Assembly: GCA_019245255.1 (NCBI GenBank)
Contig: JAFARV010000676.1
Coordinates: 1-58,220, forward strand
Length of the DNA stretch: 58,220 nt
From: Acidobacteriaceae bacterium
Lineage (GTDB): Bacteria > Acidobacteriota > Terriglobia > Bryobacterales > Bryobacteraceae
Direction of reading: 5' to 3'
Below are positions 5,964-57,891 of this stretch, piece by piece. The first letter of the stretch is position 1. Every line of letters starts with the position of its first letter. The notes beneath the pieces are model-generated. The model saw only the letters and a program-made list of their open reading frames with translations, did no database searches and was not told where the DNA came from. A program made the translations under genes and the position numbers.

Positions 5964-6043
5964 ATTGGGAGTTCGCTTTCCTCCGCGTTGTCGCACGGGG
6001 GTGTTCGGGCGGCAGTGGATTTTCGAGGGAAGTGGTTGATGCG

Positions 6044-11990: not shown

Positions 11991-12152
11991 AACCTCATCA
12001 TAGCTATGTAAATGGCTATCAAGTGGCGCCTTCAATGACAACGGCCGCCTGTGGCCGCGAGTGCGTGAAGAGCGCCCCGAACTTCGCTGAACCGATTCGG
12101 GGCACCAGCAGGTAGCACGCCGGGTTGTGCTTACGACGGATAATCGTCTTGC

Positions 12153-30221: not shown

Positions 30222-30500
30222 TTAGCGAGCATGCCGCTTCTTGTCACGTGCGCCGCGGCGAATCTCCTTGTACTCTGCCATCAGCTTGTTTTCCGTCGCG
30301 CCCCATGATGCGATCATTTCATCCAATTCCTGGGCGGCAGCCTGCATCGCGGCCAGTTCCGCTTTCCGGTTCCGCCGTTGCGTAGGGATGTAGAATCCCA
30401 GCGTTTCGCCGCGCCTGGTAATTGCGAGCGGTTTGCCAGACTGAAGATAGTCAACCAGGTTTTCCCGGAATTCCCGGATGCCGACGGTAACGGTTTGCAT
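30222..30500 (-). CDS. Phd/YefM-like antitoxin, orphan
   Basis: MQTVTVGIREFRENLVDYLQSGKPLAITRRGETLGFYIP. No toxin ORF downstream. Confidence 0.6.
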   Translation of the reverse strand: MQTVTVGIREFRENLVDYLQSGKPLAITRRGETLGFYIPTQRRNRKAELAAMQAAAQELDEMIASWGATENKLMAEYKEIRRGARDKKRHAR

Positions 30501-30617
30501 ATGGGTACCTTGTGTACGCATGGTAGCGCCGACGCGTCGGCAGACAAGACTTTGAACATTTCTACTACTTTGGGTTCGACTCGCATTGTGATACGCGGGA
30601 GGCGTAAACTTTATCTC

Positions 30618-36790: not shown

Positions 36791-36920
36791 TGCACCCTGG
36801 TCTGGTCTGGCAGCTATGAGCATTACGCCGGTTCGTCCAGCCTGGACGTCTAACCACATAAGCGTGGTGACGAGCCATTCGCAGGAGTCTTCTTCGTCGC
36901 CTGGACACCCCAACGCCGTC
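36791..36920 (+). pseudogene. fragment paralogous to 34458-34590 of the repeat/3D protein gene
   Basis: Nucleotide and peptide similarity (CTLVWSGSYEHYAGSS vs CTWSNGSYEYYTGSS; SVVTSHSQESSSSPG vs GVVTVNSQGSSSPG). Interrupted by stop and frameshift. Confidence 0.45.
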
Positions 36921-37128: not shown

Positions 37129-37446
37129 GTGCAGATGGATCGCTGTTATCCGATTGCCATTGTATTTCGAGAGTTGTTGCATGACACAAACTCCATGCTC
37201 CGCCGCTTGCAGATGTTGGCTGAGTGCCGCGATGTCCATGGCGTGTACCGGCACGAGCGATTAGAGCAAGTACTGGCGGATGAGGTAAATGGCGCGTGCG
37301 GTATTGCTCATAATCTGATCTGGAGCGACTGGGCCCGGTTTTCGCTCGAACAGCAGCGTATCGATTTGATCGAGTATCTGCGCGGTTTTCCGAAGCCCTC
37401 CGAAACGCTGCTTGCATTCAATTCGGAAACTCCGATGTTTCAATAG
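37129..37446 (+). CDS. AraC-family regulator, N-terminal part (ends at an in-frame TAG)
   Basis: 105 codons, same frame as 37486..37905. Combined length of about 258 codons fits an AraC-family protein. Confidence 0.5.
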   Translation: MQMDRCYPIAIVFRELLHDTNSMLRRLQMLAECRDVHGVYRHERLEQVLADEVNGACGIAHNLIWSDWARFSLEQQRIDLIEYLRGFPKPSETLLAFNSETPMFQ

Positions 37447-37485
37447 GCGCCGACGGATGCCCCGGATGAGGAACGGCAGCTCGCG

Positions 37486-37905
37486 GTGTCAAATTTCAGT
37501 GTACTTGTGGGCCTGCTGTGCCGAACCTATTTAGCGGACGTTCTGAGCGAGACCGAACAGGATTCGAGCGCAGTAGGTGCTCCGGTTATGGCCGACATAC
37601 TGGCGCTGATTGAAGAAACATATGCCCAGCCGGCATTTTCAGCGCTGTCCATCAGTAAGGCACTGGGCTTGTCGGAGCGGCACATGCGCCGGATGTTGAA
37701 GACGCATACGGGGGTGTCCTTCGCGATCTATGTGAGGCGCTTGAGAACCAAACGTGCAAAGGATTTGCTGATCGGCTCCGGGGAGTCGATCAAGGCGATC
37801 GCCGGGGCAGTGGGTTATCGCCACTCTTCGTCGTTCATCAAGTATTTCAAGATTGAGACGGGGCTCGCGCCGGACCAATTCCGACGGCAGTGGGCAGTGA
37901 CGTAA
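37486..37905 (+). CDS. AraC-family regulator, HTH part
   Basis: Double HTH: SISKALGLSERHMRRMLKTHTGVSF...IKAIAGAVGYRHSSSFIKYFKIETGLAPDQFRR. Confidence 0.8.
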   Translation: MSNFSVLVGLLCRTYLADVLSETEQDSSAVGAPVMADILALIEETYAQPAFSALSISKALGLSERHMRRMLKTHTGVSFAIYVRRLRTKRAKDLLIGSGESIKAIAGAVGYRHSSSFIKYFKIETGLAPDQFRRQWAVT

Positions 37906-37969
37906 TAAGGATGGGGTAACAGCCGAGCGGTGCATGGTGATGGCAGAATACTGGTGCCCGCACCCGCAG

Positions 37970-38392
37970 TTACTCGTTTGGACGATTGCGAAAGAGCGCA
38001 CGAAAGCCTTCCTGCTCGAAATGCCGATCGTTTGTGAGAACTTCCATTATGCCTTCGCGTCGCATAGCGGTCATCGAAATACAATCGGTCATGCTGTAGC
38101 CCTTATCGGCCCGCTGGCAATACAAGTCGAGTCCCAATAGAAACGCCGCTCGGCTCTCTGGAATTACCCGGAGGTCAGGGGCGTCCAGCAGCGTGCGGAC
38201 AGTGTGGCAGGCGCGCTTTCGGAGATGTGCATCGGCAGAGAAAAACGTCAGAAATTCCGTCAGCACGGCATCCGTGGTCACAATTTTCGTTTGCGTCACC
38301 TCCTGTGTGTGTGCCAGCGCGAAGCGATAATGGGGATCTGCACGATTTGTGAGTGCGACCCAGTAGAAGGTATCCGCAAAGATCTCCCTCAC
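37970..38392 (-). CDS. vapC: PIN-domain toxin VapC
   Basis: GTG at 38392 (GTGA overlap with the antitoxin stop). FADTFYWVAL...TDCISMTAMRREGIMEVLTNDRHF. Confidence 0.8.
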   Translation of the reverse strand: MREIFADTFYWVALTNRADPHYRFALAHTQEVTQTKIVTTDAVLTEFLTFFSADAHLRKRACHTVRTLLDAPDLRVIPESRAAFLLGLDLYCQRADKGYSMTDCISMTAMRREGIMEVLTNDRHFEQEGFRALFRNRPNE

Positions 38393-38664
38393 GGCTCTCG
38401 CTTGGGCAAGCCGTAGACATAATGATCGACTTGAGTGGCGCCGTCGGCGGGCAGTTTGGCCTTCGCCTCTTCGGGCAAGTCGTCCCAAATTTCGCGGATC
38501 ACGTCCGAGATATGCCGTCGCGCAGGTTCACCTGGACAGGTCGCGCCTTCGAGATCCTGATCGAGCACCTGCTCGGCATATTGCTCGGCCGAGACACCGC
38601 GGGCCCGCGCCTTCGCTTTAAGCGCGGCTTCTTTGTCCTCGGCAAGGTGAATGGTTAAAGTCAT
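38389..38664 (-). CDS. vapB: VapB-type antitoxin
   Basis: 91 aa. MTLTIHLAEDKEAALKAKARARGVSAEQYAEQVL (RHH-like). Coupled to vapC. Confidence 0.7.
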   Translation of the reverse strand: MTLTIHLAEDKEAALKAKARARGVSAEQYAEQVLDQDLEGATCPGEPARRHISDVIREIWDDLPEEAKAKLPADGATQVDHYVYGLPKREP

Positions 38665-38798
38665 TGCTGGGTCTTTTCACGTGCCGTGCGGCGAGTTTCT
38701 TTGTGGTCTGACATCAATTGGTTTTCCGTCGGGACGCCCCACAGGCAATCGTTTCATCTTCACGCGTACGCTCCTAGGATACGCTGTCGCGGTGTGCC

Positions 38799-38941
38799 GC
38801 CGGGGCAGTGGGTTATCGCCACTCTTCTTCGTTCATCAAGTATTTCAAGATGGAGACGGGGCTCGCGCCGTGCCAATTCCGACGGCAGTGGGCAGTGATG
38901 TAGTGAGAATGGATAGCAGGCGGGCGGTACATGTTGATGTG
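38799..38941 (+). repeat. displaced duplicate of the araC 3' end (direct repeat of 37801-37943)
   Basis: The first 100 nt differ from 37801-37900 at 4 positions (manual alignment) and encode AGAVGYRHSSSFIKYFKMETGLAPCQFRRQWAVM-stop. The following ~40 nt are more diverged. Confidence 0.8.
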
Positions 38942-38985
38942 CCTGTGGCACGGTGCCCGGCGGCTTGAGAAAGCGCTCTCCGGGT

Positions 38986-39366
38986 TCACCGCCGACCAAG
39001 CCTGAAAGAACGACTTTTACCTGGGCCTTTAGCCGTCGCCTGCAACTCTTCGCGAATGATGCGCCGCAGCGTGCCCTCGAATTTTGGGGCTTTGCCTTCG
39101 ATGTACTCGCGCAGCGCATTGTTCAGCAGCGTTTGATAGCCGACGCGTCCTTCGTGCTTGTCCGCCTGCTCGCCGAACCAGTCGTAAATGTCTTCGTCGA
39201 TGCGGATGGTGATCCGAATCTTGCCGGGCTCGACTGGCGGCTGTGGAAGCAGCCGACCGTTTCGTCCAGTCCGCCGCAGTTTCGTGAGGTCGAGCTTGTC
39301 TGGGAGCTCGTACGCATCGTTTTCGCGCTGTACCTGTTCGAGTGTCTTTGCTGTTCGTTTGCTCAT
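38986..39366 (-). CDS. brnA: BrnA-family (CopG-like) antitoxin, orphan
   Basis: ATG at 39366. KIRITIRIDEDIYDWFGEQADKHEGRVGYQTLLNNALREYI. No BrnT ORF upstream. Confidence 0.7.
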   Translation of the reverse strand: MSKRTAKTLEQVQRENDAYELPDKLDLTKLRRTGRNGRLLPQPPVEPGKIRITIRIDEDIYDWFGEQADKHEGRVGYQTLLNNALREYIEGKAPKFEGTLRRIIREELQATAKGPGKSRSFRLGRR

Positions 39367-39485
39367 TCCTGGAAGTACTCCGTTTCCTCTTCCTGTTGCG
39401 CTTGCCGTGTTTTCCGTGCTCGATGCGCCGCAGTCCAGGACGGATGTTGTCACAGCGCGGCGCGGAAAACGAACAGTCGCCAAAG

Positions 39486-39743
39486 TTAGCGGCGTGTGAT
39501 CTGAAGTTCAATGCTTTGCCGGAGACGGGAGAACAAGTCATCCTCAGCGATCCCGCTGGCGTCGCCTTCGTCGATTGCAGCCCGGATAGCAGCCAGTTTA
39601 GCCTCATTCTCCTGTTCATCCCGTTCGAGCTTTCGGAGCGCTGCGCGAATGACCTCGCTTGCATTTTCGTAGCGTCCGCTCGACACTTTCGCAAGCACAA
39701 ATCGTTCCAGCTCGTCGGTCAGGTTCACTTTGCGTGTCGGCAT
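39486..39743 (-). CDS. parD: ParD-family antitoxin, orphan
   Basis: MPTRKVNLTDELERFVLAKVSSGRYENASEVIRAALRKLE. No ParE ORF downstream. Confidence 0.75.
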   Translation of the reverse strand: MPTRKVNLTDELERFVLAKVSSGRYENASEVIRAALRKLERDEQENEAKLAAIRAAIDEGDASGIAEDDLFSRLRQSIELQITRR

Positions 39744-39779
39744 ACTTCCGTTTAACCATCCTAACGGGCTCGACAATGG

Positions 39780-39862
39780 TTGCCAATGCTGATTTCGGCT
39801 CCTGAAGAACGTGAGGGTTTTGCTTGACCACAATTTGCGGCATAGCCTGCGAACTAGTCTCG
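39780..39862 (+). repeat. fused x+y repeat (x matches 40532-40564, y matches 40879-40930)
   Basis: x is 33 nt with 4 mismatches. y is 52 nt with 2 mismatches and is the 5' end of a DUF5615 gene (MRVLLDHNLxHSLRTSL). It is joined at a CGT microhomology and lacks about 315 nt that include the DUF433 gene. Confidence 0.8.
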
Positions 39863-39867
39863 AAAAT

Positions 39868-40215
39868 CTACTTCGCCCCGATAAGCAGAGCTATGTAACC
39901 GCGCACGGTATGGAGAAGTTCCGTGGGTCCCGTTTCGACATACTTTGCGGCACGGGCTTTCAGATCTACACATTTGACTTGGTCAGCAAGAACAACTCCG
40001 TGCACCTGGTAACCGTCTGGAATCGCAACCTCGAAGGGATAGCCTTTGACCTGAGTCGTTGTTGGACAAACAAGCGCCAGCCCCACCCGCGCGTTATATG
40101 CGGCTTCTGACACAACTAATGCGCGACGGAAACCGCCCTGCTCGTGTCCGAGAACCGGGTCAAAGTCAAGCTTGATCAAATCGCCCGGCTGGAAAACCCG
40201 GCGTTTACTCACCAA
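39868..40215 (-). CDS. mazF: MazF/PemK-family endoribonuclease toxin
   Basis: 115 aa. PGDLIKLDFDPVLGHEQGGFRRALVVS...LVCPTTTQVKGYPFEV. The start may be the GTG at 40212 (GTGA overlap with mazE). Confidence 0.9.
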   Translation of the reverse strand: MVSKRRVFQPGDLIKLDFDPVLGHEQGGFRRALVVSEAAYNARVGLALVCPTTTQVKGYPFEVAIPDGYQVHGVVLADQVKCVDLKARAAKYVETGPTELLHTVRGYIALLIGAK

Positions 40216-40463
40216 TCCTCATTGCCTTTTGGGGGACCCCAATTTGTTTCAGCATGGCGGTTTGCTGGAGTCACCCGTGCAAGCAATTCATCGAGCGTAG
40301 GCAGTGCGCGCGTGGCGCGTACAACGATTACACCCGGTGCGTCCACCTCGAACGTCACCGCGTCCCCTTCGTGCAGGTTTGCTTTCTGCATGATGGATTT
40401 AGGAATTCGGATAGCGGGGGCATTGCCCCACTTCGCAACCGCAGTTTCTTTTGCGAGCGCCAT
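40209..40463 (-). CDS. mazE: MazE (AbrB/SpoVT-fold) antitoxin
   Basis: ATG at 40463. AVAKWGNAPAIRIPKSIMQKANLHEGDAVTFEV. Confidence 0.8.
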   Translation of the reverse strand: MALAKETAVAKWGNAPAIRIPKSIMQKANLHEGDAVTFEVDAPGVIVVRATRALPTLDELLARVTPANRHAETNWGPPKGNEDW

Positions 40464-40636
40464 ATACCGCCTCTTATCTAGTATATACAATGTATCTACC
40501 TACGTCAATGTGAGACTTTTATTGCGGCGGCTTGCCAATGCTGATTTCGCCCACTGGAGAACGTTGGCGATGGTTTCTAAACTGCGACTGACAATCTGCC
40601 TGCGCCTAAAAGCTACGATTGAAGGAAGGAACGGAT

Positions 40637-40882
40637 ATGGCAACGTTGGATAGCTACATCGACTGGACGAGCTGCGAGCTGGTCGAGCGCGTTCCGGGCA
40701 AGGTCTCCGGCCGCCCGATCGTGCGCGGAACCCGCATTCTCGCGGATACGATCGCGCAGGACGCTGAGTTGGGTTCGTCCCTGGAAGAAATTCATGACAA
40801 TTATCCCGACCTTCCCATGAGCGCCATTCAGCAGCTTATTTCCTTTGCCCGCTCACACCGCGTCGAACAGCGCGTGCCGTGA
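40637..40882 (+). CDS. DUF433-domain protein (antitoxin-like partner of DUF5615)
   Basis: ATG at 40637 behind GAAGGAAGGA. VPGKVSGRPIVRGTRILADTI is typical of DUF433. Confidence 0.8.
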   Translation: MATLDSYIDWTSCELVERVPGKVSGRPIVRGTRILADTIAQDAELGSSLEEIHDNYPDLPMSAIQQLISFARSHRVEQRVP

Positions 40883-41220
40883 GGGTTTTGCTTGACCACA
40901 ATTTGCCGCATAGCCTGCGGACTAGTCTCGGCAAACTCTGCGATCACGAAATCTTCACCGCTTCCTATATGGGTTGGGGTGACCTCAGAAACAGCGAATT
41001 GCTAACGGCGACTGAGCAGAAAGGTTTCGAGGTTTTCGTTACCGGCGATCAATCCCTTGTGCATGAGCAGAACCTCAGGGGCCGGCGTTTGGCTGTTATC
41101 GCTTTATCGGCAAACAACTGGCCAATTATAAAGAACCGTGTCCCAGATATTCTTGCCGCGATCGATGCCGCCACACCCGGTTCTTTTAACATGCTCAATT
41201 GCGGCGAGTTCAGGCGCTAG
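40879..41220 (+). CDS. DUF5615-family PIN-like protein
   Basis: 113 aa. MRVLLDHNLPHSLRTSL...FEVFVTGDQSL. GTG start overlaps the DUF433 stop. Confidence 0.8.
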   Translation: MRVLLDHNLPHSLRTSLGKLCDHEIFTASYMGWGDLRNSELLTATEQKGFEVFVTGDQSLVHEQNLRGRRLAVIALSANNWPIIKNRVPDILAAIDAATPGSFNMLNCGEFRR

Positions 41221-41344
41221 CGTGCTCAGCTCTGACCGTCCACTTTTCGACGGCGGTGCATTGACGCCTTCGGTTCTTTGACCCGCTAACTCCTTTCTTT
41301 TCTGTGCAGACGTTTGGTGCGGTGGCTGCATTGGGTTCCATCGC

Positions 41345-41689
41345 ATGGTGGACTCGGTTTCGCGATCGCTCGAGAAATATATGGACGTGCTCGCGGCACG
41401 TCAGAAACTGGTCGCTTCCAACATCGCCAACGTCGATACGCCAGGGTACAAGACTAAAGATCTCGACTTTCAAAGCGAGTTCAATGCCATGCTGCAGGGT
41501 TCAAGTCCGAGTCCTGCGGCGCAGGAAGTCGCCGGGCTGCATGTCAAGAACGACGGCAACAACGTCAGCCTGGACCGGGAAGCGCGGCTGCTGAGCGAGA
41601 ACTCGATCCGGTTCACGGCGGCGACAAACCTGATGAAACGCCAGCTGACCATGCTGAAATCCGCGATTCACGAAGGACAAGGCGGATGA
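41345..41689 (+). CDS. flgB: flagellar basal-body rod protein FlgB
   Basis: 114 aa. LAARQKLVASNIANVDTPGYKTKDLDF. Confidence 0.9.
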   Translation: MVDSVSRSLEKYMDVLAARQKLVASNIANVDTPGYKTKDLDFQSEFNAMLQGSSPSPAAQEVAGLHVKNDGNNVSLDREARLLSENSIRFTAATNLMKRQLTMLKSAIHEGQGG

Positions 41690-42126
41690 GTCTCTTCTCC
41701 TCTTTATCTGTCAGCGCGTCGGGTATGAATGCGCAGCGCACGCGCGCCGAGCTGCTGGTGGAGAATCTTGCCAATGCGGAAACGACGCGTACTCCGGAAG
41801 GCGGCCCCTACCGGCGCAAAGACGTGGTGTTTCAATCCGAAGCCGTCGGTTCTCCGTTTGCGAGCGTATTAGCCGACGAGATGAACGGCGGTGGTTCGAC
41901 GGGCGTCGGGACCTCCGATACGCTTATCGATCAACGCGACCCCGAGATGCGCTACATGCCGGGGCACCCGGATGCGGGACCTGACGGCTATGTCGCATTT
42001 CCGCGTTTGAATCCGGCGGAAGAAATGGTGGACCTAGTGAGCGCTTCGCGCGGATACCAGGCCAATGTGGCCTCCATGACCTCAATAAAGGAGATGATCC
42101 AGCGGTCGATCGACTTATTGAAGTAG
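41686..42126 (+). CDS. flgC: flagellar basal-body rod protein FlgC
   Basis: 146 aa. SASGMNAQRTRAELLVENLANAETT...SASRGYQANV. Confidence 0.95.
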   Translation: MSLFSSLSVSASGMNAQRTRAELLVENLANAETTRTPEGGPYRRKDVVFQSEAVGSPFASVLADEMNGGGSTGVGTSDTLIDQRDPEMRYMPGHPDAGPDGYVAFPRLNPAEEMVDLVSASRGYQANVASMTSIKEMIQRSIDLLK

Positions 42127-42149
42127 CGACTTAGCTGAAGTAACTCCTC

Positions 42150-42449
42150 ATGTCTTCTCCGATTTCATCCGTGCTGGGAGTATCGCCGTCGGTTGCCGTG
42201 GAACGGGTCACGTCCGCGTCGCAGACGAAAGGCGAAGGCTTCGGGTCTGTTTTGGAATCGGCCGTTCAGGGCGTCGAGCAATATCAGCAGAATGCGAATC
42301 AGGCGGTCCAGCAGTTCCTGCAGGGAAACGGCGAATTGCATAATGTGGCACTCGCGACGCAACGCGCCGAGATGGCTTTCGATTTAGGGCTTCAGATCCG
42401 GAATAAGATCGTTTCGGCCTATCAGGAAGTCATGAAGATGCAGCTTTGA
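42150..42449 (+). CDS. fliE: flagellar hook-basal body protein FliE
   Basis: 99 aa. C-terminus HNVALATQRAEMAFDLGLQIRNKIVSAYQEVMKMQ. Confidence 0.85.
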   Translation: MSSPISSVLGVSPSVAVERVTSASQTKGEGFGSVLESAVQGVEQYQQNANQAVQQFLQGNGELHNVALATQRAEMAFDLGLQIRNKIVSAYQEVMKMQL

Positions 42450-42462
42450 TGGCTAAACGAGC

Positions 42463-44169
42463 ATGGCGCAGTTAAAGAAGTTACTCGAAAGCCTGTCGCT
42501 GAAGCAGAAGGTCTCCATAGGGGTTGCGGCCCTGGTGGTGATTGCGGCGATTTACGGCTTTACGCGTTTGCGCCATGAGCAAGACTTCAAGCCGCTGTAT
42601 ACGGGCGTCGCGGCTGAGGACGCGGCGGCCATCATTCAAAAGATAAAAGAAAGCGGAACCGAGTACCGGCTATCGGACACCGGAGGGGTAATATCTGTTC
42701 CATCGAGCAGGGTGGCCGAACTGCGCTTGGAACTTGCAGCCGCAGGCCTGCCGCGCACAGGGCGCATTGGGTTCGAACTGTTCGATAAGACGAATTTCGG
42801 TGCAACCGAATTTGTCGAACATGTGAACTACAACCGCGCGCTCGAAGGTGAACTGGAACGCTCAATTGGGACGTTGAATCCGGTGGAACAGGCGCGCGTT
42901 CATTTGACGGCCGCAAAAGATTCGGTGTTTGTGGAAGCGCGGGAGCAGGCGAAGGCGAGCGTGGTGGTGAAGTTGAGGCTCGGCTCGGTTTTAACACCGC
43001 AGAATGTGACGGCGATTCAACAACTGGTTTCAAGCGCCGTGGAAGGTCTGGACCCGGCCGATGTCTCGGTGGTGGATACACGCGGCAATCTGCTGAGCAA
43101 GCGGAAGGCGTCGTCGCAGGAGGATTCCTCCGATGCGGTATTTGAGCGCAAACAGCTGATCGAACACGACCTGCTCCAAAAGATCAATGACACGCTGGAG
43201 CCGTTGCTGGGGCACGATAAGTTTCGCGCGGGCGTGACGGTCGACTGCGATCTGACGACAGCGGAACAAAGCGAAGAGACTTATGATCCGACCAAGTCGG
43301 TGATGACGAATTCAAAGAAGTCGGAGGAAGTGACGACTTCGAATGCGACGGCAGGTATTCCGGGGACGGCTTCGAATCTGCCGCGGCCTCCGGTGCGCGC
43401 CGGCGGCCCGAGCAATATGACCACGCGCCGGACCGAGGACATCAGCTACGAATCGAGCCATGTAGTGCGGAAAATGCATATTCCGGATGGCGGTTTGAAG
43501 CGGATGTCCGTTTCAGTCCTGCTGGATCAGCGGATTCAGTGGGAAGGGAAAGGCAAGGCAATGCATGCAGTTCCGGTCCCACCGACACCGGAGACGATCA
43601 AGGCGGTACACGATCTGGTGGCCGGCGTCACCGGATTTGCGCAGGAACGCGGCGACCAGATCACGATCGAGTCGCTGCCGTTTGAAGCCACTTTGGAGCA
43701 GGTGGCGCCGCCGCAAGCAGCGCCGGCGGCTCCGGGAAAGAGCAAGCCGGGTAACTGGAAAGACTTACTGAAGGATCAGAAGATGTTGTTAATTGCCGCA
43801 GGCGCGGGCGCAGTGGCTATCTTGCTGTTGGCCGGTACGGGAGTGTTCTTCTTTATGCGCCGGGGCAAGAAGCGCCAAGTGAAAGACGCCGAAAAAGCGC
43901 ATCCAAAGGCCGATTTGACAAAAACGGTAGAGGACGCCAAGGCCAAGGCTGAACTGGAAGCCGCAAATGCCGCCGACCAGCTGGAAGCGGCGCTGGCGGA
44001 GCGGATGGCGGAACAGCACAAGGCCGATATGGCGGCGCTGGCGGCACTGAAGCTGCCCACAGTTACGACGAAAAAGAGCGAACTGCTGACCAAGGAAATC
44101 CGCGAGAGCACTAAGAAAGATCCGAGCGTTTCGGCACATGTAATTCAGACCTGGTTGCACGAGGGCTAA
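42463..44169 (+). CDS. fliF: flagellar MS-ring protein FliF
   Basis: 568 aa. N-terminal TM, YTGVAAEDAAAIIQKIKESG, RALEGELERSI, second TM near the C-terminus. Confidence 0.95.
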   Translation: MAQLKKLLESLSLKQKVSIGVAALVVIAAIYGFTRLRHEQDFKPLYTGVAAEDAAAIIQKIKESGTEYRLSDTGGVISVPSSRVAELRLELAAAGLPRTGRIGFELFDKTNFGATEFVEHVNYNRALEGELERSIGTLNPVEQARVHLTAAKDSVFVEAREQAKASVVVKLRLGSVLTPQNVTAIQQLVSSAVEGLDPADVSVVDTRGNLLSKRKASSQEDSSDAVFERKQLIEHDLLQKINDTLEPLLGHDKFRAGVTVDCDLTTAEQSEETYDPTKSVMTNSKKSEEVTTSNATAGIPGTASNLPRPPVRAGGPSNMTTRRTEDISYESSHVVRKMHIPDGGLKRMSVSVLLDQRIQWEGKGKAMHAVPVPPTPETIKAVHDLVAGVTGFAQERGDQITIESLPFEATLEQVAPPQAAPAAPGKSKPGNWKDLLKDQKMLLIAAGAGAVAILLLAGTGVFFFMRRGKKRQVKDAEKAHPKADLTKTVEDAKAKAELEAANAADQLEAALAERMAEQHKADMAALAALKLPTVTTKKSELLTKEIRESTKKDPSVSAHVIQTWLHEG

Positions 44170-44193
44170 CGTGCACCGCGACAGAGCCCGGAA

Positions 44194-45234
44194 ATGATAC
44201 AAAACGCTCCCCCCGGCGCAGAACTGACGCCGGTAATGCGAGGCACAACAAAGGCCGCGATGCTGCTGATCCTGCTTGGGGATCAGGCGAGCGCCGATAT
44301 CATCAAGCATCTGCCTGAGGACGATGTTCAGATGGTGACGCGAGAGATCGCGCGCATGAAGAAGATCCCTCCCGAACAGGCAGAAGATGTTCTGGAAGAG
44401 TTCTTTCAGATGACCACGGCGCGGAAATACGTGCTGACCGGCGGTCTCGATTACGCAAAGAGCGTATTAGTAAATGCATTTGGCCCGGACGCGGCCCGCA
44501 AGCTGATGGATCGCCTGATGAAGGCGATGGGCACTGACATGTCGAACTTCGACGCCATTCAGAAAGCCGACCCGCAGCAGCTGGCGAAGTTTCTTCACTC
44601 GGAGCATCCACAAACAATCGCGCTGGTGCTCGCGCACTTGAATCCGTCGCAGGCAGCGGCGCTGCTTTCCAATATGCCGCCGTCGCAACGCGCCGATCTG
44701 GCATTGCGTGTGGCAAGCCTCGATCAGATATCGCCTGAGGTCATCAACAAAATCGCGACCGTTATCGGGCAGAAGCTGAATGCGCTGGGCGAATTCAGCC
44801 GCGAGTCATACGGCGGCGTGCGCGCGGTTGCGGAAATGTTTAACCGGCTCGATTCGGACACGAGTAAAGAGCTTTTGGCCCACATTGAGTCGCAGGATCC
44901 AACGCTGGTCGAGACGATTCGGCATCTGATGTTCGTATTCGACGATCTGCTGTTGCTCGGCCAGGAAGCGATTAAAGAGATTCTGGCACGGGTGGACCGC
45001 AAGATACCGATGGTGGCGCTAAAGGGCACCAGCGAGCAGATCAAGCAACACTTCCTCGGATGCATGTCCGAGCGCGGCGCGCAGATGATGCTCGAGGATA
45101 TGGACGCGCTGGGTCCGGTGAAGATCAAGGAAGTGGAAGCGGCGCAGCAGGAAATCATTGCCGTCGTCCGCAAGCTGGAGGCGGAGGGCGTGATCAGTCT
45201 CCGCGGTACGGTCGGCGAGCAGTATGTTGTCTAA
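44194..45234 (+). CDS. fliG: flagellar motor switch protein FliG
   Basis: 346 aa. AAMLLILLGDQASADIIKHL, MFVFDDL, EAAQQEIIAVVRKLEAEGVI. Confidence 0.95.
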   Translation: MIQNAPPGAELTPVMRGTTKAAMLLILLGDQASADIIKHLPEDDVQMVTREIARMKKIPPEQAEDVLEEFFQMTTARKYVLTGGLDYAKSVLVNAFGPDAARKLMDRLMKAMGTDMSNFDAIQKADPQQLAKFLHSEHPQTIALVLAHLNPSQAAALLSNMPPSQRADLALRVASLDQISPEVINKIATVIGQKLNALGEFSRESYGGVRAVAEMFNRLDSDTSKELLAHIESQDPTLVETIRHLMFVFDDLLLLGQEAIKEILARVDRKIPMVALKGTSEQIKQHFLGCMSERGAQMMLEDMDALGPVKIKEVEAAQQEIIAVVRKLEAEGVISLRGTVGEQYVV

Positions 45235-45955
45235 AATTCTGCGGGACGAGCAGAAAGATGCAGTGGAGCCGCTTCCGTGGCGGCGCGTGGGCGGCGGCGC
45301 ATCTCCAGCTCCAGTTGCAGCGCCGGCGACGGTGAAGGCTCCCGTGCCGGTGGTGATGCACCGAACCGCGGGCGGGCATTTTCAACAGGAATCCGTGCTG
45401 CAGCAGGAAATCCAAACCTTGCAGGCGCGCATGGCTGAACTTGAAGCAGCCGCAGAGCGGCGGGTTCGGGAAACGCGCGAAGCGGCATATAAAGAGGGTG
45501 AGGCTGCGGGGCGCAACCAGGGGACCGCGCAAGTCCAGCCGGTTTTAGATAAGCTGGCGCAGTCCATACGGGAAATCGTCGATATGCGTCCGAAGCTGAG
45601 GCACGAAGCGGAAACAGACGTCGTGAAGCTGGCGTTAGCGATCGCGAAAAAGGTATTGCATCGTGAGCTGGTAGCCGAACCCGAAGCCCTCCTGGGGTTG
45701 ATTCGCGTGTCCATGGACAAAATCCGTGTGAATGAAATCGTGCGCGTGCGGACCAACCCGCAACATCATGGGCCGATACAAGCGGCGATCGCGCGCTTTT
45801 CGATGGGCGCGAAGGTGGAGATCCTGGCAGATGCAAAGTTGCCGCTGGGCGGCATCGTGATCGAGACCACGCGCGGTGAGTTCGATGCCTCCGTCGATAT
45901 GCAGTTGAAGGAAATCGAGCGCGGCCTGACGGATCGCCTGGCGCATTCGCGTTGA
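45224..45955 (+). CDS. fliH: flagellar assembly protein FliH
   Basis: 243 aa between fliG and fliI. Coiled N-terminal half and a FliH-like C-terminus (GGIVIETTRGEFDASVDMQLKEI). Confidence 0.8.
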   Translation: MLSKILRDEQKDAVEPLPWRRVGGGASPAPVAAPATVKAPVPVVMHRTAGGHFQQESVLQQEIQTLQARMAELEAAAERRVRETREAAYKEGEAAGRNQGTAQVQPVLDKLAQSIREIVDMRPKLRHEAETDVVKLALAIAKKVLHRELVAEPEALLGLIRVSMDKIRVNEIVRVRTNPQHHGPIQAAIARFSMGAKVEILADAKLPLGGIVIETTRGEFDASVDMQLKEIERGLTDRLAHSR

Positions 45956-46063
45956 CATGGAATTTGCTGGGTCAAAAATTGCGCAGGGTCGAAGAGCCGA
46001 ATTGGCGGCCTATGCGGCCGCCGCAGGCCGAGGGCCCGCCCCACTCAAAGCTGAAGGGCTGAC

Positions 46064-47383
46064 ATGGAAGCGATTGATATAGCCCCGTATCTGCGTAAGA
46101 TCGAGCGCATGCCTGGCGGTGTATGGCGCGGACATGTGACGGAAGTCACCGGCCTGTTAATCGAATCCAGCGGACCGGCGGTTGCGGTCGGGGATTTCTG
46201 CGAAATTCAAACGTTCACCGGGCGGGTGGTGAGGACACAAGTGATCGGGTTTCGAAATGGGCGGGTGTTGTCGATGCCGCTCGAAGAGACCGACGGTCTG
46301 CAGATGGGCGATCCGATCATCGCGCGCAGCGAAAAAGCCGGCGTGCTGGTTGGACCGTCGCTGCTCGGCCGTGTGCTCGATGGCTTCGGCGAACCGATGG
46401 ACGGCGGTCCACCGGTGGAGGAAGACGCAAACTATGAGCTGTACCGTCAGCCGCCCAGCCCGCTGGCGCGCGAGCACATCACGCAGCCGCTCATCACTGG
46501 CATGCGTGCCATTGACAGCCTCCTGCCGTGCGGGAAAGGGCAGCGAATCGGCATCTTCGGCGGTAGCGGTGTAGGAAAAAGCACCCTGCTCGGGGCGATG
46601 TGCAAGCACAATTCGGCGGATGTGGTGGTGATTGCCCTCATCGGCGAACGCAATCGCGAAGTGCGCGCGTTTCTCGAGCATGAACTCGGTCCGGAAGGCC
46701 GGAAGCGCGCCGTAGTTGTGGTTGCCACATCGGATCGTCCGGCGCCGCTGCGAGTGCGAGCTCCGTTCGTCGCTCTCGCCGTAGCCGAGTACTTCCGCGA
46801 TCAAGGCAAGAACGTGCTGCTGGTTATGGATTCGGTGACGCGACTGGCGATGGCGCAACGCGAGATTGGTCTTGCGGCCGGCGAACCACCCAGCCAGAAA
46901 GGCTATACGCCGTCGGTGTTCAATATGCTGCCCAAGGTGTTTGAACGCGCGGGCAATTTTCCGCAGGGCTCGATTACGGGGTTCTTCACGGTGCTGGTGG
47001 AAGGCGATGATTTCAATGAGCCTATCTGCGATGCGGTCCGCGGCATTCTGGACGGGCACATTATTCTGTCGCGTCAATTGGGTGCTGCGGGACATTATCC
47101 GGCAATCGACATTCTGAACTCGGTCAGCCGCTTGCAATCCAAGGTCTCGACAGAAGAGCAGAAGGCGGCGGCGCGCAAGGTGCGCGAAGCACTGGCGTCA
47201 TATCGCGATGCGGAAGATCTGATCAACCTGGGCGCGTACGTGTCGGGCAGCAATCCCAAGCTCGATCAATGCATCAAGGCACGTCCTCACATCATCGATT
47301 TTCTGCGTCAGGATGCGGAAAAGAATGTGAGCCGGGACGAGACTCTATACGGCTTGAACAAACTGGGCGCGCTGCTCGGATAA
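46064..47383 (+). CDS. fliI: flagellum-specific ATPase FliI
   Basis: 439 aa. Walker A GIFGGSGVGKST. Walker B LLVMDSVTR. Confidence 0.95.
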   Translation: MEAIDIAPYLRKIERMPGGVWRGHVTEVTGLLIESSGPAVAVGDFCEIQTFTGRVVRTQVIGFRNGRVLSMPLEETDGLQMGDPIIARSEKAGVLVGPSLLGRVLDGFGEPMDGGPPVEEDANYELYRQPPSPLAREHITQPLITGMRAIDSLLPCGKGQRIGIFGGSGVGKSTLLGAMCKHNSADVVVIALIGERNREVRAFLEHELGPEGRKRAVVVVATSDRPAPLRVRAPFVALAVAEYFRDQGKNVLLVMDSVTRLAMAQREIGLAAGEPPSQKGYTPSVFNMLPKVFERAGNFPQGSITGFFTVLVEGDDFNEPICDAVRGILDGHIILSRQLGAAGHYPAIDILNSVSRLQSKVSTEEQKAAARKVREALASYRDAEDLINLGAYVSGSNPKLDQCIKARPHIIDFLRQDAEKNVSRDETLYGLNKLGALLG

Positions 47384-47386
47384 GCG

Positions 47387-47827
47387 ATGAAGGCGTTCCG
47401 ATTCAATCTTGCGCGGGTGCTCGACTTGCGCGAGAGCGAAGCGAAGGCGGAGGAATCGAAGCTCGAGCAGATGTATGCGATGCGCGCGCGAATGGAAGCC
47501 GAGCGGGATGCGTTAATCAACGGATTTGAGCGCATGGCGGTGGCCATCAAGTCGCAGCAGGCGCTGCAGCCGTCCGAGCTGATGGCATTGGACCGATATA
47601 AAGCACGCGTCGAGCGGGAAAAAACGGAATTGGCAGCACGCCTTCGAGCTCACGAAGAAGCGATCGGAAAACAACGGGCACGAGTTGTAGAAGCACGCGC
47701 GCGGGTGCGGCTGCTCGAGAAGCTACGTGAGAAGCGCAAGGCGGAGTGGCAGGTGGGCGCTGATCGCGAGATGGAAGAGTTAGCAGCGGACTTCTCAGCG
47801 GCGCAGTGGCTAAGAGAGCGGGGGTGA
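47387..47827 (+). CDS. fliJ: flagellar export chaperone FliJ
   Basis: 146-aa coiled-coil ORF directly after fliI. Confidence 0.8.
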   Translation: MKAFRFNLARVLDLRESEAKAEESKLEQMYAMRARMEAERDALINGFERMAVAIKSQQALQPSELMALDRYKARVEREKTELAARLRAHEEAIGKQRARVVEARARVRLLEKLREKRKAEWQVGADREMEELAADFSAAQWLRERG

Positions 47828-47852
47828 GGAGTGGGGCATAATAAGTGGTGCC

Positions 47853-48099
47853 ATGGCGAGCAGCCCGGTGTACTTAGAAATTGTCGACTTCTTCGCCTCG
47901 GGGACAACGCCGCAAGCAGTAATTGACTTCAAACCTTTCACTTGCTGCGCAGGAGCGTGCTCTTCAACTCCTGGAACTCGCCAAGGAGAATCGCCTGACA
48001 CCTGAACAGGCTTCGGAATTAGAACATTTTACTGAGTTGGAACATATCCTGCGGATGGCAAAGGCGCGCGCGCGGGAGATTCTGGCTGCCCGGCAGTGA
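47853..48099 (+). pseudogene. small helical protein (usual partner of an HNH gene), frameshifted
   Basis: MASSPVYLEIVDFFASGTTPQAVIDFKPF then a 1-nt frame change. It continues LAAQERALQLLELAKENRLTPEQASELEHFTELEHILRMAKARAREILAARQ-stop (48097-48099). Confidence 0.5.
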
Positions 48100-48254
48100 A
48101 TTGGCCGGGAGCTGTACGCCGGCTGGTCGAAAGCCGGGCACAACGCCGATGCGAGTATTGCCTGTTGCATGAAGAGGACGCGGGATTCCCGCACCACATT
48201 GACAGCCGAAAACATGGCGGATCAAGTGAGCCGGATAACCTAGCAAGTGCATAA
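48096..48254 (+). pseudogene. HNH endonuclease remnant (52 codons)
   Basis: VRRLVESRAQRRCEYCLLHEEDAGFPHHIDSRKHGGSSEPDNLASA-stop. The HNH core is truncated and the C-terminal CxxC half is missing. Confidence 0.5.
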
Positions 48255-48270
48255 CTGGGCATTTTGGCCG

Positions 48271-48393
48271 TTGCGTCTGCTCGACACGTTACGTGAGAAG
48301 CGGAAGGCCCAGTCGCAAGTAGCGGCTGATCGTGAGATGCAGGAATGAGCAAGGGATCTGGCAGCGGCGCAATGGCTGCGCGGCGCTGGCGCG
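48271..48393 (+). repeat. displaced duplicate of the fliJ 3' end (direct repeat of 47705-47827)
   Basis: Encodes RLLDTLREKRKAQSQVAADREMQE-TGA-ARDLAAAQWLRG, compared with fliJ RLLEKLREKRKAEWQVGADREMEELAADFSAAQWLRERG. 17 mismatches in the first 75 nt by manual alignment. Confidence 0.7.
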
Positions 48394-48447
48394 CGGAGAA
48401 CATCCGTCCGATGAAGTCTTAGCCGGTATCCCGTTCGCGTTGTTTGT

Positions 48448-48833
48448 TCATGGCCTGTCTTTCAGCACAAGCTCACGAACGCGCAATCCGGACACGCGCT
48501 GAAGCCTTCTGTCGTTCGTCAGCAGTTCTGCGTCGAAAACGAGGGCGGTAGCAACAATAATCGCATCCGGAAGCTTCAACTGTTCTTGCCGACGCAACTG
48601 TATTGCACGCGCTTCGACGTCTTGCGTCAGGGTCACGACAGCCACTTCGCTCAGAAAGTCCCGAATCTGCTTTTCACTCGTCGTATCGAGTGCGGGATAA
48701 GAAAGCAGCTCCATCTTTGGATTACAGAAACCAAATACTCGCCCGCAGGCGGCGGCACCGCCAATCGCCCGCCCAGGAGATAGAGGACAGCATCGTGTCC
48801 AGCAGCCGTCTCACCGCCACTCGTCGCGCACAC
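48448..48833 (-). pseudogene. vapC: PIN-domain VapC with two frameshifts
   Basis: Three frames read RRLLDT / DAVLYLLGGRLAVPPPAGEYLVSVI / MELLSYPALD...LPDAIIVATALVFDAELLTNDRRL. Confidence 0.6.
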
Positions 48834-49014
48834 GTTCTTGGTACGTCAGCGGGTCTTCGGTTAACTGCAAGACACCGCTGTAACGCGTCAAGTCGACCGC
48901 ACCCGGCGTTCGCGAAGAACCTTCCTGCATCGCTTCAAGGATCCGGATGACTTTCTGCACCTGGTCTTCACTAAGTTCATCAATGGCACGATGGAGGTCT
49001 TGTCTGGTCGTCAT
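48811..49014 (-). CDS. vapB: VapB-type antitoxin
   Basis: ATG at 49014. MTTRQDLHRAIDELSEDQVQKVIRILEAM...YQERVRDEWR. Overlaps the vapC relic. Confidence 0.6.
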   Translation of the reverse strand: MTTRQDLHRAIDELSEDQVQKVIRILEAMQEGSSRTPGAVDLTRYSGVLQLTEDPLTYQERVRDEWR

Positions 49015-49212
49015 TGCTGGCACCACGTTTTAATAGTTGTGGCCGGTCGTCGCGTAACCCGGCACACCAGCCTAGCAGATTTCGTGAAGGATAACGTTTT
49101 AGTGACGGCACGTCAACTGTCGTGAGGTCGGCTTCGGCCTCAACGCCGGTTTTCTTGCCGTGCTACATTCCTGCTTAAACACCAATGTACGGGCCGAATT
49201 TTCAGTGAGCCG

Positions 49213-49959
49213 ATGACGGACGTTCGCTCGCGGGTGGAAGTAAAAAAGGCGGAATTGGATCGTTTGCGGCCACTCGCGAGACGGGGACTTGCGGCGTTGG
49301 CCGCGTGGTATGACGTGGAACTGACCTACACGTCAAACGCGATCGAAGGCAATACACTGACACGCGTCGAAACTGCTGAGGTAATCGAGAAGGGCCTTAC
49401 CATAGGCGGTAAGCCGCTCAAGGATCATCTCGAGGCGATTGGGCATAAAGAGGCGCTCAGGTTTGTGCGCGACCTGGCGCAGAGGGAAGATCCGGTGCGT
49501 GAATCAGATGTGCGGCAAATTCACGCGCTGATCCTGATGTCGGCGGACCCATCTGAAGCTGGTAAGTATTCCGATCACGACCGCGTCATCAAAGGCTCGC
49601 CTCTAGTGTTGCCCTCGGCATGGGAGCTGAAGCCGCTGATGAGCGATTTCGGCGTGTGGCTTTCGGCCGTTGAGCCGGGTCCGGAAGCGGCATTTGATGC
49701 GCACGCGAAACTCGTTACGATTCATCCGTTCAGCGATGGGAATGGCCGTACGGCCAGGCTGCTGATGAACCTGCTGCTGTTGCGTGCCGGATATGCACCC
49801 GTTGTCATTGGGCCGGAGCATCGGATCCGATATCTGGACAGTCTGCAGGCGCTACAGCTTCACGGTCACGAAGAGCCGTATAAGCAGTTTCTGTACGAGC
49901 GTCTGGAATCCGGTTTGGACGAGCACCTACGGAGACTACACCCGGATCTTGAGGCATGA
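49213..49959 (+). CDS. Fic-family protein (class II, N-terminal inhibitory helix)
   Basis: 248 aa. Fic motif HPFSDGNGRTARLL. An alpha-inh-type motif SNAIEGN lies upstream. Confidence 0.9.
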   Translation: MTDVRSRVEVKKAELDRLRPLARRGLAALAAWYDVELTYTSNAIEGNTLTRVETAEVIEKGLTIGGKPLKDHLEAIGHKEALRFVRDLAQREDPVRESDVRQIHALILMSADPSEAGKYSDHDRVIKGSPLVLPSAWELKPLMSDFGVWLSAVEPGPEAAFDAHAKLVTIHPFSDGNGRTARLLMNLLLLRAGYAPVVIGPEHRIRYLDSLQALQLHGHEEPYKQFLYERLESGLDEHLRRLHPDLEA

Positions 49960-50514
49960 ACAAAGCCTACGTCCGCAGCCGGCCGCATCATCCCGGAAAG
50001 CATCAGCGCGCTGTCCGATATGTAAAGTGTGAATCGATTCTGGGAGGACGCGGCCAGCATCTTCGAGACTGCCACGGCGGTTCGAGATGGCGCGGATTCC
50101 GAGATTGCGATCCTTGTTGACGCGCGCAATGGTCTCCGGATCGTCGATGCGGCAGGGTGGGGCTTAGACGCCTTACGCCGGGAATATCAGGCATCCACCG
50201 CTTACACGGTCAAACGTTCCGGCGGCTCCGTTACAGTCGAAGCACAAAACGGGTCCGATCGCTGCATGCTGAAGAAGACAAGCACCGGTAATGCTCTGCC
50301 GAATCTGCTCGGCGGCATCCCTCATCACCTGGTCCGGGAAGCGGTTCCCGCTCTGCTGGCGTAACCCACAAATACTCTGGTCACCCCTTCCCTCCTCGTT
50401 TGCAGGAACATTCAGCCACATTCTGCGGCACTGTATGGGACTTTTTCTTAGCCCGATTGGTTGTGTGTGTGATAGCATATAGTTCACATAACTGTAAGCC
50501 GGTGAGCACCTCGT

Positions 50515-57680: not shown

Positions 57681-57891
57681 ACTTCCCCGAGCCAGATGAG
57701 CACGTGTATTGCCACGGTTTTTGCCGGGAAATACAAAGGTTTGGGCGTATTTTAGCGACGAACTATGGTCGGGCGACGAGATTTGGACGGCGAGGGAAGG
57801 CGCGGAGCGCCGGCCCTGCTGTATCCTAGAACTGGGATAGATGGCTCGCGGCACGGCCAGAACGAAAAAGACTGAACAAATCACTGGCGTG

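Follow-up and report, generated by a model that had tools for sequence, protein, structure and literature searches.

The direct repeats that bracket small addiction-type cassettes around the flgB-fliJ operon of this Bryobacterales/Solibacteraceae acidobacterium are best read, with roughly even confidence on our part, as scars of sequential displacement, in which strains would swap cassettes by ordinary recombination and both flanks of the operon would act as recombination hot spots. The mobility of chromosomal toxin-antitoxin modules is poorly understood, most of them having no transposase, integrase or att site. The window (the whole stretch of DNA analysed, 58,220 nt of one contig), together with its strain variants, provides breakpoint-level evidence on the movement of such modules in an uncultivated soil acidobacterium. 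Modules appear to turn over at fixed hot spots beside conserved genes, apparently by general recombination alone, and the footprint of this turnover would be a stranded, diverged copy of the adjoining gene end accompanied by orphan antitoxins.

The observation of three gene-terminus direct repeats bracketing small cassettes within 11 kb, made in an earlier note on this DNA, is genuine, although its details need correction. The repeats lie where that note had placed them (R1, R2 and R3, Table 1), with BLAST E-values against their own window of 1e-47, 1e-17 and 1e-16, respectively. The copies of R1 enclose vapC and vapB, both on the reverse strand, and those of R3, whose longest identical run is about 13 nt, enclose a small ORF and an HNH stub. 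Such footprints are in excess here, since the same filter retrieved 11 short-range direct repeats from 1.41 Mb of related loci, a background rate at which about 0.08 repeats are expected in 10.6 kb, against the three observed. Two assemblies agree, and every repeat junction is contained in the interior of an independent Logan unitig or contig, so an assembly chimera is unlikely. Indeed, a single 6.4-kb Logan contig of flat depth covers both R1 and the a-b relic, all R3 junctions are internal to a unitig, and an independent root metagenome again contains the junction between the region upstream of vapB and the R1 relic, differing at 1 of 151 nt. Chimeric assembly as the source of the repeats was rejected on this spanning and on this recurrence.

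Table 1. Coordinates of the repeats, cassettes and relics in the window
Feature	Position	Strand	Description
R1 (repeat pair)	37800-37942 vs 38798-38939		143 nt, 89.5% identity; araC 3' end and ~37 nt beyond the stop
R2 'a' (repeat pair)	39780-39812 vs 40532-40564		33 nt, 88%; adjoins 'b'
R2 'b' (repeat pair)	39810-39862/69 vs 40878-40930/37		53-60 nt, 92-96%; DUF5615 5' end
R3 (repeat pair)	47706-47811 vs 48272-48377		106 nt, 77%; fliJ 3' end
AraC-family regulator gene	37129..37905	+	~258 codons; HTH_18 E=3e-24; 3' end is R1 copy 1
R1 copy 1	37800..37942	+	3' end of araC, functional copy (to 37905), and the next 37 nt
vapBC cassette	37970..38664	-	VapC 37970-38389 (ORF to 38488), VapB 38389-38664
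phd-like antitoxin 3'-end relic	38665..38760	-	Immediately upstream of vapB, within the vapBC segment
R1 copy 2	38798..38939	+	Displaced araC 3'-end relic; frame and stop retained
Orphan antitoxins	38986..39833	-	BrnA 38986-39483 (BrnA_antitoxin E=4e-11), ParD 39486-39833 (ParD_antitoxin E=1e-15)
Relic 'a-b'	39780..39869	+	33 nt of DUF433 upstream region joined via CGT to first 53-60 nt of DUF5615
mazEF cassette	39868..40490	-	MazF/PemK 39868-40215 (PemK E=1.5e-21), MazE 40209-40490 (MazE E=3e-11)
DUF433/DUF5615 module	40511..41236	+	'a' 40532-40564, DUF433 40619-40882, DUF5615 40879-41220; Pfam matches
fliJ	47387..47827	+	Intact, 146 aa; 3' ~106-111 nt up to 47811 is R3 copy 1
Small-ORF/HNH cassette (dead)	47812..48266	+	Small ORF 47853-48099, HNH stub 48096-48254
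R3 copy 2	48267..48377	+	fliJ 3'-end relic, in-frame TGA, joined to HNH stub at CTGCT
Remaining island after fliJ	48448..49959		Lies before the conserved gene at 50029
PIN pseudogene	48448-48714 and frameshifted 5' part		Part of fliJ-side island
Small upstream ORF, antitoxin position	48811-49026	-	No family match
Fic	49213-49959	+	Part of fliJ-side island

Contrary to the idea that host genes remain intact, araC is broken by a premature in-frame TAG at 37444-37446, read as TGG in three other metagenomes (X2, X3 and X4; 37445 A>G). Its displaced 3'-end copy has 3 of 34 residues changed, and the two copies differ at 6 of 106 coding positions against 9 of 37 past the stop (p=0.003). Because the frame and stop are retained and the mismatches are distributed in this manner, the relic resembles a displaced allele that was still functional during its divergence. 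The reads on the araC end contain a single informative site, 37830 G>T, common to an X3 allele and the relic; assigning the relic to a given allele was dropped, one such site being too little. A search with the repaired full-length AraC protein gave no match at E<=1e-20, and no empty araC site was found. The cargo enclosed by R1 consists of a FitA-like RHH antitoxin, VapB (FitA-like_RHH E=9e-5, under the Pfam cut-off), and a PIN-like toxin, VapC (VapC model E=5e-4, under the model cut-off, with the usual PIN motifs seen by eye). The phd-like relic beside them is 76% identical in DNA to 30239-30323 (translations ..TENQLMSDHKETRRTAREK..* vs ..TENKLMAEYKEIRRGARDK..*). Farther downstream, BrnA and ParD are orphans, as their spacing in the ORF map leaves no space for BrnT or ParE. 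The cargo genes with Pfam matches are MazE/MazF, DUF433/DUF5615, BrnA, ParD and PIN.

R2 is composite, in the layout a-b-mazF-mazE-a-DUF433-b/DUF5615. Therefore, the segment bracketed by R2 takes in DUF433, while the first copy represents what is left of a DUF433/DUF5615 module; this relic is missing DUF433 and adjoins the mazF stop, and microhomology (CGT) is present at the a-b joint. The repeat of the DUF5615 5' end lies where the earlier note placed it, but DUF5615, its supposed host gene, is itself part of a strain-variable DUF433/DUF5615 cassette. The island border is at 41236.

The strain evidence, which comes from short, low-depth Logan contigs of other metagenomes, includes presence/absence polymorphisms with exact breakpoints at this place. 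The X4 contig joins 39770 to 40532, lacking a-b-mazEF, with flanks ~97.5% identical and one a2-type 'a', so that the 33-nt 'a' is single-copy at the mazEF site. Contigs of an X1 variant and of X2 join 40510 to 41236/7 and lack DUF433/DUF5615, and X3 has an internal deletion in this module. Cassettes are indeed gained and lost as units at gene ends, with no linked recombinase recognised. With one allele carrying only mazEF, one only DUF433/DUF5615 and one carrying both modules, stepwise addition fits; a deletion between the 'a' copies would explain the mazEF indel equally well. As no empty-site allele was found in a close strain for vapBC or for the entire HNH cassette, we infer the direction of these two events. 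The divergence between repeat copies (4-23%) exceeds that of the strain lacking mazEF (~2.5%).

On the other side of the operon, fliJ is followed by a small ORF and HNH in loci L084 and L171, by ParE and an antitoxin in L086, and by none in L087; homology breaks at 47811-47829 in all four. At least three diverged lineages have the small-ORF/HNH cassette in this one position, and in two of these it is decaying, each time independently. Judging from its reading frames, the cassette of the window is dead: the small ORF is frameshifted near 47936-47941, 9 nt of the HNH motif are missing after 48202, and the fliJ relic cuts the HNH gene after ~52-57 codons, with ~22 nt of filler before the joint and 5 nt of microhomology (CTGCT) at it. 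The comparison of cargo with core, which covered the HNH cassette only, gave 389/432 identical positions (90%) between the window and L084, against 74% in the adjacent fliI/fliJ core, and in the control lineage L171 the cassette is 73% and the core 76% identical to the window. This discordance with L084 indicates a recent lateral exchange of the cassette between lineages. The last 111 nt of fliJ are 86% identical between the window and L084, between the core and cassette values, and 82% between the window and L171, with third-codon identity raised in both. This segment does not stand out clearly as belonging to the tract exchanged laterally. A jump in sliding identity to L084 at ~47700 was rejected as a recombination breakpoint; since the controls L086 and L171 rise likewise, it is attributed to protein constraint. 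L084 also hints at a gene end and cassette with no duplication at all. Elsewhere, the small-ORF/HNH pair occurs in unrelated contexts as two translationally coupled genes with no flanking repeats, and by its architecture it looks like a widespread toxin-antitoxin-like module. In the rest of the island, other strains carry 1-nt insertions at 48719 and 48792 in the region of the PIN pseudogene. The gene at 50029-50364 lies directly 3' of fliJ in several relatives.

The modules that differ among related strains at the operon flanks are vapBC, mazEF, DUF433/DUF5615, the small-ORF/HNH pair, parDE and PIN pairs. The 41236 boundary is further marked by two JGI metagenome loci around FlgB (L128 and L129), whose homology begins at this position, upstream of flgB, and this set of loci is informative for that boundary only. 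GTDB representative genomes are too distant (FlgC <=81% identical, flanks not conserved) and were used for the background and the fliJ-island boundary only.

The absence of a recombinase noted previously agrees with our survey: reading the ORF lists of the window by eye revealed none, and a profile scan covered a subset of the ORFs. No tRNA and no Rfam family was found in the window, and tRNA-targeted integration and known RNA elements were rejected. At the 12 cassette borders, neither inverted repeats nor a dif-like site or 9-mer shared beyond the repeats themselves were found, and site-specific recombination at dif- or attC-like sites was rejected on this basis.

The data directly show the repeats, the alleles with and without cassettes, the transfer of the HNH cassette between lineages and the joints with microhomology; the direction of each event, the anchoring by homology on one side and the way in which the DNA entered are inferred. 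In the proposed sequence, DNA from a diverged strain would enter with its own copy of a conserved gene end and its own cassette, and would pair on one side with the resident gene through homology. On the other side, an illegitimate joint at a microhomology would complete the exchange, through homology-facilitated illegitimate recombination or in some topologically equivalent way; to produce a duplication, this joint needs to fall inside the homologous tract. The incoming gene end would then become the working copy, leaving the resident end stranded downstream as a relic with any prior resident cassette, and later decay would remove toxins first, giving rise to orphan antitoxins and stubs. Illegitimate joints with microhomology are seen at the HNH/fliJ relic and at a-b, the other joints having no parental sequences, and displaced ends (araC, fliJ, DUF5615 and phd relics) and orphans (BrnA, ParD) are present. 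Two of the routes considered in the earlier note, short homology carried on incoming DNA and capture of transforming fragments, fit the strain alleles, the HNH exchange, the microhomology with filler and the araC relic.

This footprint is not new in kind: it matches both long target duplication (PMC2853133) and Rhs/type VI displacement (PMC5361080), and the cassettes reveal no new mechanism. Toxin-antitoxin mobility would thereby be linked to the long target duplications of restriction-modification genes and to the displacement arrays of Rhs and type VI loci. For Rhs/CdiA C-terminal tips and type VI effector-immunity modules, displacement via homology-facilitated illegitimate recombination is proposed by Kirchberger et al. 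(2017, PMC5361080) and in the work on Rhs C-terminal displacement cited there. There, too, a new gene end with cargo is added at a conserved gene end and the old end with its old immunity gene is pushed downstream, so that arrays of orphaned 3' fragments and protective genes remain (the counterparts in the window being BrnA, ParD and the relics of araC and fliJ), with no linked recombinase and with a lateral origin apparent from discordant identities. In contrast to those loci, the genes that serve as anchors here (araC-family, fliJ) are unrelated, with housekeeping or regulatory roles, rather than toxin parts, the cargo resembles type II toxin-antitoxin modules, a 5' end is duplicated in one case, and the host is an uncultivated acidobacterium. 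Homology-facilitated illegitimate recombination itself has been studied in natural transformation (experiments cited in PMC5361080) and in E. coli conjugation (PMC3240628), where one homologous anchor and one illegitimate joint of a few bp of microhomology likewise trap foreign cargo beside conserved DNA. However, in such experiments the recipient DNA between anchor and joint is usually reported lost, whereas here it is duplicated, with the joint within the homologous tract, and the process is deduced from sequence.

Among the alternatives, Campbell-type integration, in which a circle with a gene-end segment and cassette enters by a single homologous crossover and duplicates the homology on either side of the cargo, seems unlikely. 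A crossover in 'a' would give the order a-b-mazFE-a-DUF433-b exactly, the repeat length would equal the homology carried, and the cut of HNH would be the joint of the circle. Nevertheless, homology this short and diverged (33 nt at 88%; 106 nt at 77%, the longest identical run in R3 being ~13 nt) would serve RecA poorly, neither a circular form nor a replication function was seen, and an illegitimate circle-closing joint would still be required.

We regard as rather improbable a strict insertion with long target duplication, meaning a widely staggered break that creates a target copy de novo, followed by drift. The model comes from restriction-modification genes (Nobusato et al. 2000; Furuta, Abe and Kobayashi 2010, PMC2853133), which are also post-segregational-killing modules, bracketed by direct repeats, tens to hundreds of bp long, that often overlap a gene 3' end, with no transposase or integrase, and detected against an empty-site strain. 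The geometry here is the same, in that direct repeats >30 bp enclose a small cargo of addiction type and the ORF lists, read by eye, contain no recognisable mobility gene; the single 'a' of the X4 allele agrees with it. However, the cargo consists of toxin-antitoxin modules, and the published repeats are near-identical (44/46, 417/423), whereas those of the window are 77-96% identical, behaving as alleles of different lineages, though the ~2.5%-diverged strain lacks one cassette. In addition, the coding part of R1 is far better conserved than the non-coding part, the a-b relic without DUF433 is not a simple target copy, and the fliJ relic truncates the HNH gene of the cargo itself.

A dedicated mechanism acting in trans, either homing initiated by the HNH protein or an Xer/dif-module or integron-type system encoded elsewhere in the genome, appears quite improbable. 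The visible genome amounts to 58 kb only, and the presence of the HNH cassette at one point in several lineages, with lateral exchange and independent decay, resembles the life cycle of a homing endonuclease. Nevertheless, homing leaves no duplication, the HNH of the window is a stub without part of its motif, and the pair is a coupled module without repeats elsewhere; HNH-initiated homing, suggested in the earlier note, cannot account for the vapBC and mazEF cases, whose toxins are RNases. Modules moved by XerCD or IntI (pdif modules, integron cassettes) are likewise toxin-antitoxin-sized units stacked in arrays with no recombinase of their own, but the cassette borders here have neither XerC/D-like nor attC-like sites, nor any other conserved sequence, and consist instead of gene-end relics; the joints have microhomology and filler rather than a fixed site. 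Highly doubtful, too, is the possibility that exchange is specific to certain gene termini (fliJ at 47811/47812, a point ~37 nt past the araC stop, and 41236, which lies upstream of flgB), where an unrecognised host or cassette activity, with the small-ORF/HNH pair as a possible active agent, swaps toxin-antitoxin-sized modules and creates long variable duplications without integrase or attC. Nothing points to such a dedicated mobilisation mechanism, which is unnecessary.

Finally, local duplications or assembly chimeras independent of cassette gain are very improbable: alleles of different strains may be strung together in metagenome assemblies, branches occur in the unitig graph near 48076-48105, 48315-48344 and 40434-40463, and L074 carries a plain tandem duplication at fliI/fliJ, but recent tandem duplication is unfit for unique cargo between copies that have diverged by 4-23%, and the spanning contigs described above speak against chimeras.

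If sequential displacement is correct, a genome-wide screen for partial gene-terminus duplicates within 3 kb could date and count the events. In the window, tblastx of the region returned noise only, and the gene at 34186-35469 has a relic at 36809-36896. The footprint recurs in another Solibacteraceae genome, where a 124-nt repeat (84%) of a host gene 5' end brackets an RHH and PemK pair.

All three direct repeats of gene termini that the earlier note had described around small cassettes (R1, R2 and R3, with R2 made up of the parts 'a' and 'b'; see table) proved to be real, and the pattern they form is non-random and supported at the population level. The same filter (direct repeats of 40-400 nt, 250-4000 nt apart, E<=1e-6), applied to 1.41 Mb of related loci, retrieved 11 pairs, mostly tandem paralogs, so that about 0.08 pairs would be expected in 10.6 kb versus the three observed. 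This arrangement did not arise through chimeric assembly, because R1 and the a-b relic are spanned by a single 6.4-kb Logan contig with flat depth, each of the R3 junctions lies inside a unitig, the ENA assembly differs from the window by one mismatch in 10.4 kb, and an unrelated root metagenome also contains the junction between the vapB upstream region and the R1 relic (the displaced second copy), differing at 1 of 151 nt. The footprint is best read as belonging to an already known type of recombination footprint.

The window originates from the rock metagenome assembly of a Bryobacterales/Solibacteraceae acidobacterium whose FlgC is only 64-81% identical to the nearest GTDB representatives; run X1, one of the metagenome runs X1-X9 (rock, soil and root samples), contains 99% of the region's words. 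The flgB-fliJ operon is conserved across all relatives and its flanks are variable. Small modules are strung together to the left of 41236, in the order araC-family gene, vapC/vapB, brnA, parD, mazF/mazE and DUF433/DUF5615; the antitoxins BrnA and ParD are orphans here, there being no space for cognate toxins. To the right of fliJ, a small ORF and an HNH stub are followed by a PIN pseudogene, whose upstream neighbour in the antitoxin position is a small ORF matching no family, then by Fic and by a gene that lies directly after fliJ in several relatives.

Coordinates of the features discussed in the text
Feature	Position (strand)	Details
Uma2-family genes	142-711, 4677-5213, 5951-6622, 21809-22441	n=4
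YD/Rhs repeat-rich ORF	10306-11592 (-)	428 aa
Antitoxin-like gene	11736-12425 (-)	229-aa ORF, C-terminal Phd/YefM domain
Orphan Phd/YefM-like antitoxin gene	30222-30521 (-)	
Secreted-protein gene	34186-35469	relic source 34474-34560, internal
Relic of secreted-protein gene	36809-36896	88 nt, 75%, with stop
araC-family gene	37129-37905	in-frame TAG at 37444-37446
R1	37800-37942; 38798-38939	143 nt, 89.5%
phd-like gene relic, 3' end	38665-38760 (-)	~95 nt
R2 'a'	39780-39812; 40532-40564	33 nt, 88%
R2 'b'	39810-39862; 40878-40930	53 nt at 96% (60 nt at 92%)
flgB-fliJ operon	41345-47827	
R3	47706-47811; 48272-48377	106 nt, 77%
PIN gene	48448-48810	1-nt indels at 48719, 48792
Gene after Fic	50029-50364	
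XRE/HipB-like HTH protein gene	57841-58200 (+)	at window end

The idea that the host genes stay intact fails for the araC-family gene, whose in-frame TAG reads TGG in contigs from three other metagenomes (X2, X3 and X4); therefore, this regulator beside the island is a fresh pseudogene in the window strain. Between the R1 copies, directly upstream of vapB, lies the relic of a phd-like antitoxin gene, to the source of which the orphan Phd/YefM-like gene elsewhere in the window is related.

R2 is composite, with the order a-b-mazF-mazE-a-DUF433-b/DUF5615. Its first a-b is a relic of a DUF433/DUF5615 module that has lost DUF433 via CGT microhomology, and the cut in this relic, after 60 nt, coincides exactly with the mazF stop. 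The presence/absence polymorphism that the earlier note had proposed to look for was recovered as exact alternative alleles in Logan contigs of other metagenomes. An X4 contig joins 39770 to 40532, without a-b-mazEF and with flanks about 97.5% identical, whereas second-strain X1 contigs and X2 contigs join 40510 to 41236/7, without DUF433/DUF5615. Strains therefore carry mazEF alone, DUF433/DUF5615 alone or, like the window, both. In two JGI relatives, homology likewise starts at 41236, and an X3 contig has DUF5615 internally deleted (40949-41217). These strain data are short, low-depth contigs, and the direction of the mazEF indel (gain or loss) is not proven. In the X4 allele, 'a' occurs once, as the a2 type, and is preceded by TGGCAAG, forming in the 39771-39790 region upstream of DUF433 a perfect palindrome, TTGGCAAgTTGCCAA, lost from the window copies, which may be the operator of the DUF433/DUF5615 module.

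At the other end of the operon, relatives' contigs with FliJ homologues of 62-78% identity differ in content at the same point: fliJ is followed by the small ORF and HNH in L084 and L171, by ParE and an antitoxin in L086, and by no cassette in L087, and in all four the homology to the window stops at 47811-47829. In the window, a frameshift interrupts the small ORF, HNH breaks off after about 57 codons and is missing 9 nt of its motif, and the fliJ relic (R3 copy 2) has an in-frame TGA; in X2, a deletion from 48143 to 48408 has removed both HNH stub and fliJ relic. Between the window and L084, fliI/fliJ are 74% identical, whereas the cassette matches at 389/432 positions (90%) and reaches 95% over its initial 111 nt; the L171 control is equally diverged in cassette (73%) and core (76%). 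Therefore, the HNH cassette was exchanged between the lineages of the window and L084 at a time when their cores had already diverged.

The best fit to these observations, to which we would give about an even chance, is sequential displacement, as has been proposed for arrays of type VI effector-immunity genes and for Rhs tips (PMC5361080). Under this model, incoming DNA of a diverged strain would bring its own conserved gene end together with a cassette, would be anchored by homology on one side and closed on the other by an illegitimate joint, and would leave the resident gene end and the older cassette stranded downstream, where the toxins would decay first. The divergence of the repeats (4-23%) exceeds that of the strain without mazEF (~2.5%). 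Empty sites did not turn up for vapBC or the complete HNH cassette, nor could an anchor tract of donor type be shown; a rise in identity at ~47700 was rejected as a breakpoint, since control lineages rise alike. Among the other routes to a duplicated gene end, Campbell-type integration of a circle is unlikely and de novo long target duplication is more doubtful still. The latter has the geometry of the restriction-modification insertions with long target duplication (PMC2853133), but the repeats in those cases are near-identical. Moreover, reading frame and stop are preserved in the R1 relic, where three of 34 residues have changed, and its mismatches (6/106 in the coding part versus 9/37 past the stop, p=0.003) follow the pattern of an allele that diverged while functional rather than that of a copy made in place and then drifting.

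A dedicated trans-acting mechanism, including the homing initiated by the HNH nuclease that the earlier note had raised, is very unlikely. The small-ORF/HNH pair has decayed independently in the window and L171, which would be compatible with the life cycle of a homing element too. Nevertheless, comparison with the intact L084 HNH and fliJ copy 1 places the joint between HNH stub and fliJ relic at CTGCT, common to both parents, with ~22 nt of filler before it; this is a trace typical of illegitimate recombination and unlike that expected of site-specific recombination or homing. The 81-aa/136-aa pair is conserved, its genes overlapping by 4 nt (L084 834-1534; L175 3759-4411; L176-L182), and turns up across hundreds of acidobacterial contigs in unrelated settings, for instance beside a PemK gene or an integrase fragment, with no flanking repeats around it there. 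With at least 348 HNH homologues (56-72% identity), the module is widespread in Acidobacteria, and by its architecture it appears to be a further toxin-antitoxin-like module and not a homing element. As for mobility functions, the earlier statement that the window lacks an integrase or transposase stands for the ORFs read by eye throughout (minimum ORF length 40 aa for the focal region, 70-90 aa for the stretches next to it and 150 aa for the initial 28.5 kb), the Pfam or NCBIfam scan having covered a subset of them. The 12 borders contain no dif-like site and share no 9-mer besides the repeats themselves; neither a tRNA gene nor an Rfam family was found. Finally, an artefact or unrelated duplication is highly improbable.

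The same footprint as that supporting sequential displacement in the window is found in L004, a locus from another Solibacteraceae genome, where a 124-nt repeat (84%; 245-368 versus 1071-1194) covers a host gene 5' end and brackets an RHH antitoxin and PemK toxin pair. Within the window, the relic of the secreted-protein gene, located after a TonB-like gene 2.3 kb downstream of its source, is a similar scar with cargo other than a toxin-antitoxin module; therefore, such scars extend beyond toxin-antitoxin cargo. In L074, a distant relative, the fliI/fliJ junction contains a 231-nt repeat (77%, period 463 nt; 15653-15882 versus 16116-16346) in which fliJ seems to have been duplicated in tandem.

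Several other features of the region were observed. The PIN gene has two 1-nt indels relative to other strains (X2, X6) and therefore appears frameshifted in the window, and toxin genes vary in state among strains (DUF5615 in X3; the PIN gene in X2 and X6). The window also contains two additional antitoxin-like genes (table). The Uma2-family (putative restriction endonuclease-like) genes are dispersed among flagellar genes such as flhB, fliR and fliP, and form a further class of small, possibly selfish genes in flagellar-cluster gaps. The YD/Rhs repeat-rich ORF, with small ORFs after it, may represent a piece of an Rhs gene whose tips were displaced, Rhs being the classical displacement locus.
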